The notes beneath the pieces are model-generated. The model made no database searches. It had not been told where the DNA came from and worked only from the letters and a program-made list of their open reading frames with translations. The position numbers and the translations under genes were made by a program. Positions 20,368 through 30,305 of a DNA stretch of 64,000 bases are shown here, one piece after another; positions within the stretch are counted from its first letter, which is position 1; the number at the start of each line of letters is the position of its first letter. Where the stretch lies: NCBI GenBank assembly GCA_024276825.1, contig JAJRWI010000042.1, positions 1 through 64,000 on the forward strand. Reading direction: 5' to 3'. This stretch comes from an archaeon (GTDB taxonomy: Archaea; Asgardarchaeota; Thorarchaeia; Thorarchaeales; Thorarchaeaceae).

Positions 20368-21108
20368 TCACTCAGTCTTCTTCTTTGTAGCCTTTTTCTT
20401 TGGCTTCTCTTCGGCCTCTTCAGTCTTCTTCTTTGTAGCCTTTTTCTTTGGCTTCTCTTCAGCCTCTTCAGTCTTCTTCTTTGTAGCCTTTTTCTTCGGC
20501 TTCTCTTCAGCCTCTTCAGTCTTCTTCTTTGTAGCCTTTTTCTTTGGCTTCTCTTCAGCCTCTTCAGTCTTCTTCTTTGTAGCCTTTTTCTTTGGCTTCT
20601 CTTCAGCCTCTTCGGGAGCCTCAATTGGTTCAACTACAACTTCGGGACGTGTATCCTTGCGTTCTTTCTTTGCTCCCGCCGCTCTTCGTCTTCTTGCAGC
20701 CTTGCTTGGCTTTTCAATACCAATAATTGAAGCTGCTGCAAGTGCCTCTTCCATCTCCTCATCAATAACGGGAGTTTCAGGAACAGTAGAGGCGATCTCT
20801 TCCAGCACATCAGAAATCATGATGGGGCATTCAGCTTTTCTATCTTCCATTGCAGAAGGAGTAGTATAAACTGCAAACCCTGACTCTCTGATATAGGGGA
20901 TAATAACGCCGGCTTGCTCTTTCTCTCTCAAAATCCTCTTTGCCACGCTGATTCTTATTCCAAAGCGCTTTGCAAGATCATAGGCAGTGACAGACCTTGC
21001 TTTGGCAAGATACTCATTAATCTCTTCGATAGTTTCGGGTTTTGGAACAGCATCTCGAATTATTCTCTCAGTCTTTGTTGTCGATTTGCCCCATTTCTTT
21101 CTAGACAA
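20368..21108 (-). CDS. rps25e: Ribosomal protein eS25 with long C-terminal acidic and Lys-rich repeat extension
   Basis: RKKWGK N-terminus and wHTH core VTAYDLAKRFGIRISVAKRILRE typical of eS25, plus ~160 extra residues. Confidence 0.8.
   Translation of the reverse strand: MSRKKWGKSTTKTERIIRDAVPKPETIEEINEYLAKARSVTAYDLAKRFGIRISVAKRILREKEQAGVIIPYIRESGFAVYTTPSAMEDRKAECPIMISDVLEEIASTVPETPVIDEEMEEALAAASIIGIEKPSKAARRRRAAGAKKERKDTRPEVVVEPIEAPEEAEEKPKKKATKKKTEEAEEKPKKKATKKKTEEAEEKPKKKATKKKTEEAEEKPKKKATKKKTEEAEEKPKKKATKKKTE
20372..20611 (-). repeat. Five near-perfect 48-bp tandem repeats encoding EEAEEKPKKKATKKKT
   Basis: Unit tcagtcttcttctttgtagcctttttctttggcttctcttcagcctct x5 with isolated substitutions. 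Confidence 0.95.
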
Positions 21109-24553: not shown

Positions 24554-25330
24554 ATGCCAACAGTTCGAGAAATACTGCAAGACCTGATCAGTGGAAAAAT
24601 CGACGTTGACATGGCCATGAAGAAGCTTCAGGGATTGACAAGTATTGAGGACCTTGCAGTTATTGATCTCAACAGAGAGAGTAGGTCAGGCGTTCCAGAG
24701 GTAATATTTGCAGAATCAAAGCATCCAGAAACTCTCATTCATATAATCAAAGAGATGGTCGATAAGAATGGGTATGCATTATTAACGAGGATGAATAGTG
24801 AAAAGGTCAAATTCATCGAAACAAGCATAAAGAATTATGTTGTTGAAGTTTCGGGCCAGGGCGATCATCTAACGGTCCTTGTCAAAGCAGAGCAGTGGAC
24901 ACCTCCAGAAGCTGGTGGAAAAGTAGCAGTAATAACTGCTGGGACTTCTGACATCCCTTATGCAAGAGAGGCTGAGGCAATATGCCATGTTATGGGCATT
25001 GAAGTAATCTCATTCTATGATGTTGGCGTTGCAGGGATTCACAGACTAGTAGAGCCCATGAAGAAAATTAGAGAGAAAAATATTGATGCGGTAATTGTGT
25101 TCGCAGGAATGGAAGGTGCTCTTCCCACTGTTGTTGCTTCACTTGTCGATATTCCAGTAATAGGGGTACCGATTCCAACAGGATATGGTTTTGGTGGAAA
25201 GGGTGAAACCGCATTGAAGTCAATGCTTCAGTCTTGTGCCCCTGGTCTTGCTGTTGTTAATATAGGTAATGGGTTAGGAGCGGGTGCATTTGCGGCATTG
25301 ATTGCTAGAAGATGCCATATTCGTGAGTGA
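24554..25330 (+). CDS. larB: Nickel-pincer cofactor biosynthesis carboxylase LarB (PurE-like)
   Basis: GVPEVIFAESK, AGTSDIP, DVGVAGIHRL, AGMEGALP, GYG, SCAPG, VNIGNG. Confidence 0.9.
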   Translation: MPTVREILQDLISGKIDVDMAMKKLQGLTSIEDLAVIDLNRESRSGVPEVIFAESKHPETLIHIIKEMVDKNGYALLTRMNSEKVKFIETSIKNYVVEVSGQGDHLTVLVKAEQWTPPEAGGKVAVITAGTSDIPYAREAEAICHVMGIEVISFYDVGVAGIHRLVEPMKKIREKNIDAVIVFAGMEGALPTVVASLVDIPVIGVPIPTGYGFGGKGETALKSMLQSCAPGLAVVNIGNGLGAGAFAALIARRCHIRE

Positions 25331-25335
25331 TTCGG

Positions 25336-26475
25336 TCATTTAGCAATACGACGTGCTATACTTAGATAGACATCAACAGACTTGTAGAACTCGTCCAGAC
25401 TTAGAAACTCATTGGGCTGGTGAGCCTGCTCAATTGATCCGGGGCCACAAATGACATTTTGAATTCCAATCTTCGGTTGGAGAACTGAACAGTCAGTACC
25501 ATAAGTGGCACAAGAAGGTATACACTGACGACCCGTGATTGCTTCAACAGTATCAATTGCAACATTCACTATCTCGGAGTCAAGGGGTGTGATCACAGCG
25601 GGCTTGCCATGAATGTATTCAATTCTAACCCTATCGCCAAAGCCTGCCTTATACAGCAACTGGTTCATGTACTGTTGAAGACTTTCTGGAGTCTGACCCT
25701 TCACTGTTCGCATGTCAATCTGTGCCTCACAGTAATCAGGAACAACATTGATCTTTATTCCACCCTTGATCTTCCCAATATTCAGAGAGTAAGTTCCTAG
25801 AGTCGCATCATCTTCAAACGGGTATTCGGCTGTAGTTAGGATGTCAAGTGCCCTCATACAGAGCTGAATGGCATTAATACCCTCAGAGGGTCTTGAGCCA
25901 TGTGCTGCCTTTCCTCGCGCGACCACCCTTGACCAAAACATGCCCTTCTCGCTCACTAGGACCTCAAGACTAGTAGGCTCAGCACAGACACCATACCTTA
26001 CACCATGTAGACGCCCACTCCTTGCAACTTCTTCAGCGCCTGAACAACCACTCTCTTCATCGGATGTGTTCAAAATGACCAATGGACTGTCATGACCCTC
26101 TTCGATATACAGGACTAAGGTCTCAGCAAGTGCTGCCAAAGCGCCTTTCATATCACATGACCCTCTGCCATAGATTTTGCCATTAACGATTTCACCACCA
26201 AATGGGTCATGCGTCCAGTTCTCCAAGGGTCCAACGGGCACTGTGTCCATATGGCCATGAAGAACAAGTGGTCCCGTTTCACCTTCATGACTGAAGAATA
26301 GAAGGTTTGGTCGATCGGAATGACCAATACTCTCATGGGATATGCCATAATCACTCATGTGGTCAACAAGCACTTTTGCAACCTCTGCCTCACATCCAGG
26401 AGGGTTTTCAGAGTTGATAGCAATAAGTTCTTTGAGTAGCCTGAGCATCCTTGATTTATTGGGTCCTTTCACCAT
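25336..26475 (-). CDS. M20 family metallopeptidase (ArgE/DapE-like)
   Basis: HGHMDTVP, GRGSCDMKG, DEE, AEP, GPGSIEQAHQPNE. Confidence 0.9.
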   Translation of the reverse strand: MVKGPNKSRMLRLLKELIAINSENPPGCEAEVAKVLVDHMSDYGISHESIGHSDRPNLLFFSHEGETGPLVLHGHMDTVPVGPLENWTHDPFGGEIVNGKIYGRGSCDMKGALAALAETLVLYIEEGHDSPLVILNTSDEESGCSGAEEVARSGRLHGVRYGVCAEPTSLEVLVSEKGMFWSRVVARGKAAHGSRPSEGINAIQLCMRALDILTTAEYPFEDDATLGTYSLNIGKIKGGIKINVVPDYCEAQIDMRTVKGQTPESLQQYMNQLLYKAGFGDRVRIEYIHGKPAVITPLDSEIVNVAIDTVEAITGRQCIPSCATYGTDCSVLQPKIGIQNVICGPGSIEQAHQPNEFLSLDEFYKSVDVYLSIARRIAK

Positions 26476-27426: not shown

Positions 27427-28899
27427 TCATGGGTTGTATGCGAATGGATGTCTTGCGGACTCGCGTCGTGCGATGATCTCTTCAATGGGCTGTCGTTTCT
27501 CCAATGCCCTGCGAATTGCATGTCGGGTTGCCCTGAAATTGTTAATATGAACCCGTTTTGGATTGTTGGCATTAGGATGAACAAAGACATTAACTGCAAT
27601 AACTAAATCAGGTATAAGTTCCTCGGGAATGATCATATCAGTGATTGTTCTCCTCACTGCATCAGACACTGCCCTTTGGGCCACATCATAGACCAGTCTT
27701 TTATGATTCTCGTTCACTATATTCACTGTGGGAGCGAATATAGTGACAATATCACTACCTTCAATCACAATGCTTGAATGAAAGCCATCGATCATCTTTC
27801 CAGCGTTCTCCACGGCTTCGCTCAATGGGCCTGTTCGCAATCCCATGATTAGGTCAACATGTGCCACTTCTTGACCTTCTCCTGCAAGGGCCTCTCCATG
27901 AAGCAGGGTCAGGTCTGCGATCTCATCAGGAACCATACCCACAGCCTTCGGGTAGTTTTCAGCAACAATCGTTCGTTCTCCTGCTTTGAAAGTCACGGGT
28001 CCACGAGGAATCAGTTGAAGGTCCTCAAGGCAGGTTCGAAGTTCATCAATGTCCTCATAGCGTAAGACATCACCTGCGAGCAGGGGTCTGCGAGCAAGAC
28101 CTACTGGGACGCCCATCATATTTAAAGCGGCCTTGACAGCAAGACCACCACCCTTGTTGACTATCAGACGAACAGTCTTCTGAATACTCCTTTGAATGAT
28201 CATGGCATTATTGATATCGCCATTTGTAAGATGGGACATCATCTTGATGTATCTATCAGGGAATATATTGGCGCTTGCAAGAATGGCACCATCACAACCT
28301 GCCGCAAGTGCGGGCATGGCAATCTCATCATGACCAATCACAACTTGAAAGCCGCTGGGGCGTCTTACGAGTATTGTGGTCAGGTGAATCAGATTGCCCC
28401 CAGAGTCCTTCATTCCTATGATGCCATCTATCTCTCGAAGACCATCAACAAGCCACCAATCAATATTGACACCCGTCACCTGTGGAATGTTATAGACGAA
28501 GATGGGAATGTCACTATTGTTTGCTATTTTCTCAAAGTGCTCGTAGATCTCTTTTGTGGATGGTTTGAGGAAGTATGGAGAAACAACAAGTGCTGCTTGA
28601 GCACCAAACTCTGCAGCCCGCTTTGTGAGCTTGATGGCATCATTTGTATAAGCAGCCCCAGTCCCGGCAATCACTGGCACACGACCCTTGGCCGCCTCAC
28701 AAGCGATTCGAATAGCATCCACCTTCTCATCAAAACGCATGCTTGTAAACTCGCCAGTTGTGCCGCAGGGCACTATTCCTGTTGCCCCGGATTTTATCAC
28801 AAAGTCAATGAGACCGCGATAATGCTCTTCGTTTACTCCATTTTTATCGAATGGTGTCACCAATGCAGGATATACCCCTTTGAAAGTAAAATCTGTCAT
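27427..28899 (-). CDS. DapA-family class I aldolase fused to formaldehyde-activating enzyme (Fae) domain, copy A
   Basis: GTTGEF, YNIP, Schiff-base K in GMKDS. C-terminal HGEALAGEGQEVAHVDLIMG...VFVHP...NFRATRHAIRRA...SARHPF matches Fae. Confidence 0.9.
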   Translation of the reverse strand: MTDFTFKGVYPALVTPFDKNGVNEEHYRGLIDFVIKSGATGIVPCGTTGEFTSMRFDEKVDAIRIACEAAKGRVPVIAGTGAAYTNDAIKLTKRAAEFGAQAALVVSPYFLKPSTKEIYEHFEKIANNSDIPIFVYNIPQVTGVNIDWWLVDGLREIDGIIGMKDSGGNLIHLTTILVRRPSGFQVVIGHDEIAMPALAAGCDGAILASANIFPDRYIKMMSHLTNGDINNAMIIQRSIQKTVRLIVNKGGGLAVKAALNMMGVPVGLARRPLLAGDVLRYEDIDELRTCLEDLQLIPRGPVTFKAGERTIVAENYPKAVGMVPDEIADLTLLHGEALAGEGQEVAHVDLIMGLRTGPLSEAVENAGKMIDGFHSSIVIEGSDIVTIFAPTVNIVNENHKRLVYDVAQRAVSDAVRRTITDMIIPEELIPDLVIAVNVFVHPNANNPKRVHINNFRATRHAIRRALEKRQPIEEIIARRESARHPFAYNP

Positions 28900-28904
28900 G
28901 CTTT

Positions 28905-30305
28905 TCACCTCCAGATTTTTCCAAGTGCGGTCTCAACGACCTCTTCAGTGGCCCTTGTCACAGCACGCCGGTCGCGATAGTTTAGATCAACATCCATTAC
29001 AAGAATCATCACTGAATTCTCAATCTCATCTTCAGGGATCTTGCCATCTCCAAGTGCCTTGGTAATTGCCTTTGCAGCACCTGATTGCACTGGACCGTAT
29101 ATTAGAGATGCTTGACGCATAGACTTGATTCTTCTGGCTGGTAAGAGTATACTACTTGGCCTGACTGCAAGGTTCGGCTCAAGAATGACTGTGAGACCCT
29201 CATGTCCAATCTTGGGTGTGGTCAAGAGACGCACAAAGACCCGGCCAAGGGGGCTATCTTTGGGCCCTTTGATTATACCTGCAGCGACAACATTATTTGA
29301 TGCAGAGGCTGTTGGCATGCCACTCAGGTTCTTCTTATCAATACCGAATTTGGCCAGTACCTCCTTGATCTCAAGGTCCTTCTTTACCGCTGGACGAGCA
29401 ATCTCGTCAATCAAGCCGAGCTTTTCAAGTTCCAATCGAATCTCTTCACGCAGCTCACGGGTGAGGGTACCTCCAGTATCAAGCGGTAGACGTGCCTTGC
29501 CAGCTTTGATCCCCATCATTTTGAGTGCAGCTTTGACAGGAGGCGCTCCCCCATTTCTGGTTATTATTCTACTGAGGGTTTGAACCGAGTGCTGAAGGTT
29601 CATGGCCTTCTCAAGATTACCCATCTTGACATCCTCCATTATCTCAAGCCAGATGTGTGGAATGATATTTGCTGATGCAAGAATTGCCGCCTTTGCACCA
29701 GCAGCCACTGCTGATAGAAAACACTCATCATGGCCAATAATAACAGGAATCTTGTCCCTCAGTTTCTCAATGAGTTCAAGTGTGTGAGGAATATTCCCGC
29801 TGCTGTCCTTGATTGCTACAATATTGTCCAGCTCTGCCAGGTCTTCTACGATGTTGGCCTGCAGAACACCAAGCGTACATTGTGGAATATTGTACATGAT
29901 CAATGGAAGATCCGCTTTCAGGGCCACTGTCTCATAATGCTCATAGTAGCCTTTATCGGTGGGGCGTAAGTAGAATGGTGAAATAACTAGCGCAGCATCA
30001 CAACCAATGTCAGCTGCGTACCTTGTCAGTTCAACAGTGGCTCTGGTGCTGTTCTGACCGGTTCCAGCCACAACTGGTACACGACCATCAACAATCTCAA
30101 CAGTCAGCTTCAGCAGCTTTTTCCGCTCCTCGGTTCGCATATATACAAACTCACCCGTTGTGCCTGCAGGGACAACACCAGTGGCACCCTTACTTATTGT
30201 ATAATCAATTATCTGCCTAAAGCCCTCTTCCATTATATCACCGTCTTTATTGAACGGCGTGACGAGAGCAGGCATGACTCCTGTGGGAACAAACCTCTTT
30301 GTCAT
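28905..30305 (-). CDS. DapA-family class I aldolase fused to degenerate Fae domain, copy B
   Basis: GTTGEF, YNIP, AIKDSSG. C-terminal IKGPKDSP...GHEGLTVILEPNLAVRP...QASLIYGPVQSGAAKAI matches the Fae core. Confidence 0.88.
   Translation of the reverse strand: MTKRFVPTGVMPALVTPFNKDGDIMEEGFRQIIDYTISKGATGVVPAGTTGEFVYMRTEERKKLLKLTVEIVDGRVPVVAGTGQNSTRATVELTRYAADIGCDAALVISPFYLRPTDKGYYEHYETVALKADLPLIMYNIPQCTLGVLQANIVEDLAELDNIVAIKDSSGNIPHTLELIEKLRDKIPVIIGHDECFLSAVAAGAKAAILASANIIPHIWLEIMEDVKMGNLEKAMNLQHSVQTLSRIITRNGGAPPVKAALKMMGIKAGKARLPLDTGGTLTRELREEIRLELEKLGLIDEIARPAVKKDLEIKEVLAKFGIDKKNLSGMPTASASNNVVAAGIIKGPKDSPLGRVFVRLLTTPKIGHEGLTVILEPNLAVRPSSILLPARRIKSMRQASLIYGPVQSGAAKAITKALGDGKIPEDEIENSVMILVMDVDLNYRDRRAVTRATEEVVETALGKIWR

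Follow-up and report, generated by a model that had tools for sequence, protein, structure and literature searches.

Paired aldolase-Fae fusions in Thorarchaeota: a probable two-part enzyme for cleavage of 4-hydroxy-2-oxobutanoate with C1 capture

Class I pyruvate aldolases of the DHDPS/NAL family (PF00701; DapA, NanA, KDG aldolase, HOGA) are barrels that carry a GTTGE motif, a Tyr and a Schiff-base Lys. A different, formaldehyde-handling aldolase barrel is fused to Fae in the archaeal bifunctional Fae-Hps (NF009833, EC 4.2.1.147 / 4.1.2.43), and a 2-oxoacid and methylene-pterin are the substrates of PanB (PF02548, EC 2.1.2.11). The active sites of Fae lie between subunits; we take His22 to be the catalytic His and the inter-subunit cleft to be the site. 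4-Hydroxy-2-oxobutanoate (HOB) is at once the keto acid of homoserine, a PanB-type product from pyruvate, and the aldol of pyruvate and formaldehyde. It is an intermediate of the engineered homoserine cycle, where RhmA serves as HOB aldolase together with endogenous aminotransferases, and has been called a non-native metabolite in a review (PMC8879981).

Here we describe two adjoining genes, A and B, in a window of 64,000 nucleotides from a Thorarchaeota genome, each of which joins a DapA-family barrel to part of a Fae domain. From sequence and genomic context, the pair is probably one two-part enzyme that splits HOB to pyruvate and a captured C1 unit, and this cleavage would complete a pathway that is widespread among sediment microbes and so far undescribed.

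Two aldolase-Fae fusions that carry the name DapA

The two genes are adjoining minus-strand open reading frames, B at 28905-30305 (466 aa) and A at 27427-28899 (490 aa), whose proteins are 36% identical. Both match Pfam DHDPS (E 1.9e-78 for B, 1.8e-73 for A) and, C-terminal to it, Pfam Fae (PF08714; E 8e-25 for B, 1.6e-30 for A), in each case above the curated cut-offs, which confirms the original prediction of two adjacent DapA-aldolase::Fae fusions. The barrel of B spans 29442-30284, with Schiff-base Lys166 encoded at 29808-29810, and that of A spans 28075-28884, with Lys164 encoded at 28408-28410 (all on the minus strand); GTTGE and the Tyr of YNIP are also present in both, as had been read from the sequence. 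A ribosome-binding motif read from the sequence, GGAGGTGA (28905-28912, minus strand), overlaps the stop of B and lies 5 nt before the ATG of A, from which we infer that translation of the two genes is coupled. Together they are the sole Fae and the sole DHDPS-family matches in the host genome, which is 98% complete.

Downstream of A, beyond a gap of about 950 bp that holds no long open reading frame, the window encodes LarB (nickel-pincer cofactor) and an ArgE/DapE-family deacylase (24554-26475), and M20 hydrolases also adjoin the module at three other loci (L080, L081, L193). Further along, at 20368-21108, is a gene judged by eye to be ribosomal eS25-like, with a long Lys/Glu-rich tandem-repeat tail.

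Close homologues of the pair, from named Thorarchaeota, are annotated as DHDPS or DapA in both NCBI and JGI, as the original prediction had expected of automated annotation. A true DHDPS for lysine synthesis would also agree with the scores of both proteins, which exceed the TIGR00674 cut-off, and with their closest solved relatives, which are DHDPS. Several observations nevertheless leave this reading barely tenable. The predicted loss of the DHDPS substrate arginine proved general: Arg138 is replaced by Val or Cys in the pair and is carried by none of 107 A and none of 120 B orthologues (all 227 lack it), and the alignment to 2YXG also shows its absence. Asd had no match in the host genome, and DapB was found in 0 of 58 genomes of the family, against 11 of 14 in the control. 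In phylogeny the fusion barrels and one unfused relative form their own clade (support 100/99), apart from the DHDPS-like outgroup and marked by an invariant Arg244. Given the missing Arg138, the lack of Asd in the host genome and the lack of DapB in the 58 family genomes, A and B are not DapA.

Division of the Fae motifs between A and B

The Fae domain foreseen in each gene is present, but neither domain is complete alone, a point that the original prediction missed. Compared with the Fae of Methylobacterium extorquens (PDB 1Y5Y/1Y60), the domain of A (27442-27897, minus strand) retains the His22 motif and the C-terminal arm, that is, the AHxD His face, FVHP, NN[YF] and the RHP tail, and lacks the central loop and GPxQ; its His347, encoded at 27859-27861, aligns with His22. 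The domain of B (28920-29300, minus strand; profile positions 9-135 of 159) retains the central loop and GPxQ face and lacks the His face and C-terminal arm. This division is kept across phyla, where the His-face motifs occur in 53-56 of 56 A and 0-3 of 52 B proteins, and the loop-face motifs in 47-51 of 52 B and 0-1 of 56 A proteins. Single-gene fusions from Loki- and Bathyarchaeia have the motifs of both faces in 39-42 of 42 cases and the tail motif in 26 of 42, so that single-gene relatives carry all the Fae site motifs, whereas no single chain of the pair does.

Since Fae sites lie between subunits and the two halves are complementary, the simplest reading places a site at each A-B contact. 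The complementarity, together with the retention of both halves in the single-gene versions, makes it very likely that A and B form a heteromer. The two genes had been thought to encode an aldolase-Fae enzyme each; the fusions stand, but their products fit better as the halves of a single enzyme, which the product of a third gene precedes in the pathway. Of 40 loci from several phyla, 33 have B upstream of A (a contig end cuts 5 of the other 7), although these neighbourhood counts take in many related genomes and are not independent events; the order is seen in Anaerolineae, Thermoplasmata, some Bathyarchaeia, a Korarchaeota-named record, Myxococcales and Spirochaetota. The barrel tree gave no firm branching order for single-gene, A and B barrels and would suit one split of the gene or several.

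Structure prediction gave the A-B complex a score of 0.72 (best of three controls, 0.01), a mark attained by 58 of 80 solved complexes and by 2 of 110 mismatched pairs. Contact agreement between runs was at least 95% and partner pLDDT at least 89. The predicted interface consists of the tight dimer typical of DapA together with the tail of A, and the passing score may therefore stem from likeness to solved structures; as the interface includes no Fae-Fae contact, it carries no information on the split Fae site. At the position of Tyr107, which completes the neighbour's triad (residues A110 and B112), Thorarchaeota have Phe in A and Tyr in B. The A barrel may therefore be the more active of the two, although the pattern is not kept in other lineages.

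Two variants of the module were also observed. In a soda-lake Thermoplasmata lineage (L038:8544-11449 and L083:5638-8540) the pair has lost GTTGE and the two Schiff-base lysines but retains intact Fae halves, and may possibly act as a formaldehyde scavenger only; the L083 genome has no match to the linked protein X described below. One short Logan contig (L041:63-2336) joins a fusion-type barrel to a transglutaminase-like protein and is probably a chimeric assembly.

Fae matches were found in 78 of 85 other genomes of the host's family, nearly always as two weak ones. Other Asgards have a strong Fae match, and the 30 best loci are the canonical N-terminal-Fae fusion of the Fae-Hps type. The Hps domain had no match in the host genome, and NF009833 matched only the Fae part of the pair.

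A linked barrel, X, and its alternative neighbours

Clustering of the gene neighbourhoods yielded two protein families without a name, X1 (426 aa) and X2 (316 aa). A weak profile alignment shows that they share collinear motifs, and each is modelled as a TIM barrel; that of X1 matches a U32-like Atlas cluster of X2 type (313 aa) with a TM of 0.75. In the host genome X1 is encoded away from the pair (G000:C42:26737-28014). X1 was present in 20 of 20 Thorarchaeota genomes tested, and the module is nearly universal in that group; X1 also occurs in 40 of 45 single-gene loci. Among non-Asgard carriers, X1 or a close X2 was found in 29 of 36, both close forms together in none, and the 7 of 36 without X include incomplete genomes. 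A Lokiarchaeia gene upstream of the fusion, considered as a decayed B subunit, was ruled out, as it is X1.

Assigning X by family or by fold failed: X had no Pfam or NCBIfam match and no sequence relative in the PDB, the fold search returned generic barrel matches only (best Z 14.5 and 12.2), and a feature search called X2 U32-like and gave nothing useful for X1. Distant relatives were more informative. A split X2 relative lies upstream of DmpF and DmpG on a Mycobacterium plasmid, a place that is normally held by a keto-enoate hydratase, and others follow acid-sugar dehydratases or lie in acid-sugar clusters. These positions fit an addition or elimination at C4 of a 2-oxoacid. X could thus catalyse elimination or hydration at C4 of a 2-oxobutanoate, with the methionine keto acid or 2-oxo-3-butenoate as examples, an assignment that we regard as possible though on the doubtful side.

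Several other neighbours of X and of the module were recorded. In Thorarchaeota, X1 is preceded by an ECF transporter S-component gene and, in five loci, by the gene of a divergent PLP enzyme that resembles ThrC and has a PadR-like tail (G000:C42:26128-28014; L263, L265-L268), in genomes mostly without Hom. Threonine-related PLP enzymes (ThrC-like, low-specificity Thr aldolase, IlvA-like and D-Thr-aldolase-like) occur singly beside the module at L050, L074, L114 and L251. On an Enterobacter plasmid (L130:7901-16864) an X2 relative is accompanied by a kinase, a dehydrogenase, an aminotransferase, a haem-oxygenase-like enzyme and an MFS transporter, in what looks like a cluster for biosynthesis of an unusual amino acid.

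The fusion is one of three alternative neighbours of X. Within the fetched flanks of X2 the fusion was found in 31 loci, PanB in 9, and both in none; as with the order of A and B, related genomes recur in these and the other neighbourhood counts for X, so that the loci are not independent of one another. The X2-linked PanBs form one clade (95/93), which also holds one unlinked Chloroflexota PanB, and their loci (L140, L163, L165, L172, L193, L207, L212, L214, L216) have no PanC in view; they are likely misannotated as enzymes of pantothenate synthesis. Each of the nine carries Leu at position 212 and Ile at 214 (E. coli PanB numbering), where the other 14 PanBs have Val or Ile at 212 and, in 13 of 14, Val at 214. 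These residues set the keto-acid pocket, and shrinking them widens the keto-acid range of the E. coli enzyme (PMC7610986). The bulkier residues, two conservative substitutions, suggest that the X2-linked PanBs take a smaller keto acid. The third neighbour is seen in three Heimdallarchaeia families without any Fae, where X1 is present in 45 of 54 genomes and heads an operon (L237:6166-12756, L277-L296) with an aminotransferase in 19 of 21 loci, Hom in 14 and AOR in 11; Asd was found in none of five Heimdallarchaeia genomes tested.

The fusion, the X-type PanB, and the aminotransferase with Hom and AOR are all compatible with HOB, and no other compound that fits all three is evident to us. HOB is thus a reasonably probable substrate of the pair. 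The original prediction, pyruvate + HCHO <-> HOB, gains in this way from independent genomic context, with the activity itself a prediction and cleavage the likely direction.

Reaction, direction and C1 carrier

Under the mechanism that we propose, A and B would make up one heteromeric 2-oxoacid hydroxymethyltransferase. The class I barrel would form a Schiff base with HOB, supplied by X, and cleave it to pyruvate and formaldehyde, and the Fae site between the A and B half-domains would condense the formaldehyde with a tetrahydropterin, either tetrahydrofolate or of the H4MPT type. Taken as a whole, from A/B heteromer through HOB cleavage to capture by the pterin, this is the account towards which we lean.

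Two alternatives concern what the Fae halves and the barrel act on. The halves might no longer condense formaldehyde with a pterin but bind a ligand or build the oligomer, the barrel being an ordinary 2-keto-acid aldolase or hydratase-aldolase. Most bacterial carriers do lack the H4MPT pathway, and both domains fall below the cut-off of the Fae equivalog TIGR03126 (113.7 and 79.9 bits against 118.05); across phyla, however, the pair retains the catalytic His motif and both faces in exactly complementary form, and the same slot alternates with the folate-dependent PanB, which makes a loss of Fae function improbable. A rather better candidate, still an unlikely one, keeps the heteromer and its chemistry and changes the hydroxymethyl keto acid to ketopantoate, 4-hydroxy-3-methyl-2-oxobutanoate or 2-oxo-tetronate (giving hydroxypyruvate and formaldehyde). 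It would suit the PanB homology of the swapped partner, the distant X2 relatives in acid-sugar clusters, and one X2-PanB locus with an SDR whose best match, below cut-off, is D-erythronate dehydrogenase. Against it, the Hom operon is compatible only with an unbranched C4 skeleton and the X-linked PanBs have the bulkier pocket. Moreover, Thorarchaeota (10 of 10) and Lokiarchaeia (3 of 3) keep PanB, the host has PPS, and Chloroflexota carriers lack PanC, on which grounds we also rejected replacement of PanB in CoA synthesis as the main role, although these findings speak against that role more than against the activity itself.

The remaining alternative reverses the reaction. The pair would make HOB from pyruvate and methylene-pterin, and X would convert it to a needed product (the homocysteine or methionine keto acid, or 2-oxobutanoate) in place of the aspartate pathway. 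The near-universal presence of the module in Thorarchaeota, the ThrC-like gene beside X1 in five of their loci, the absence of Asd from the host and that of Hom from most archaeal carriers would all agree with such a role. However, most Anaerolineae carriers keep Hom, so that a strict anti-correlation of the module with Hom, which roughly holds in archaea, fails there; moreover, ThrB above cut-off was found in none of five genomes, and MetE was absent from four of the five. Capture should also be favoured over release, since little formaldehyde is free in methylene-pterin. Synthesis of HOB by the pair is therefore unlikely, slightly more so than a change of keto acid. In the host genome neither Hom, nor ThrB above cut-off, nor MetE was found, which would leave HOB without an obvious anabolic outlet and makes cleavage to pyruvate and methylene-pterin likelier. 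If HOB is the substrate, cleavage is likely the net direction, and the system, proposed in the original prediction as a natural counterpart of the designed homoserine cycle, does not look like an assimilatory cycle of that kind.

The original prediction had also tied the pair to the H4MPT C1 pathway. Several of its genes are present in the host genome, namely Mtd, two Mch paralogues (G000:C29:436-1482 and G000:C35:84190-85146) and Ftr, but the carrier need not be H4MPT. The host also has Fhs and FolD, as do the four bacterial or Thermoplasmata-like carriers tested (5 of 5 genomes in all), and RFAP synthase (TIGR00144) had no match in the 98%-complete host genome; given this and the two Mch, the host may use as C1 carrier a pterin that is modified or taken up from outside. 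Mch was found in only 2 of 34 sampled bacterial and Thermoplasmata-like genomes with the pair, and a complete Thermoplasmata chromosome with the pair has neither Mch nor Ftr. If the pair is active in such hosts, the family is not strictly H4MPT-dependent. As most of these carriers lack Mch and those tested have folate C1 enzymes, tetrahydrofolate is at least as likely a carrier; we regard folate as about as likely as H4MPT in the host organism and as more likely in bacteria.

We found no published description of the fusion or of X in the literature outside subscription journals; known parts are combined here in an architecture and a proposed pathway that are both undescribed. More broadly, HOB could be a natural hub of anaerobic sediment archaea and bacteria, made by X, possibly from the keto acid of methionine, and disposed of by three unrelated modules, of which the split-Fae aldolase is one, having in many hosts moved from H4MPT to folate; we give this wider picture close to an even chance. 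Models of Thorarchaeota, Lokiarchaeia or Bathyarchaeia that count the pair as dapA (lysine) or as ordinary fae (methylotrophy) would be wrong. If the proposal is correct, synthetic methylotrophy, which at present relies on promiscuous enzymes for this step, could draw on a natural aldolase that is dedicated to HOB and captures the formaldehyde itself, and a Fae that works with folate would extend the family beyond H4MPT, the carrier for which it has been described. The pair further illustrates clearly how a single active site can be shared out between duplicated genes, while its undivided form still exists in Loki- and Bathyarchaeia.

In design the proposed enzyme resembles Fae-Hps, and in net reaction PanB, but it belongs to neither family. 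It shares with Fae-Hps the fusion of Fae to a formaldehyde-handling aldolase barrel, and differs in barrel family, in the reversed domain order and in the division of Fae between two genes. The Fae of M. extorquens is a homologous domain, but its site is whole in no chain of the pair, and the pair is found in many genomes without Mch. PanB occupies the same slot beside X2 and would carry out the same type of net reaction; its fold is unrelated (PF02548 has no Pfam match in A or B), and the pair would use a class I mechanism and a smaller keto acid and is probably not tied to CoA synthesis. From other DHDPS/NAL aldolases, whose barrel and catalytic residues it retains, the pair is set apart by the lack of Arg138, its own clade with invariant Arg244, the C-terminal Fae and a putatively heteromeric state. 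With the engineered homoserine cycle it would have in common the reactions HOB <-> pyruvate + formaldehyde and HOB <-> homoserine; in contrast to that cycle, the system described here would be natural, class I and C1-carrier-coupled, lacks ThrB and is probably directed towards cleavage.
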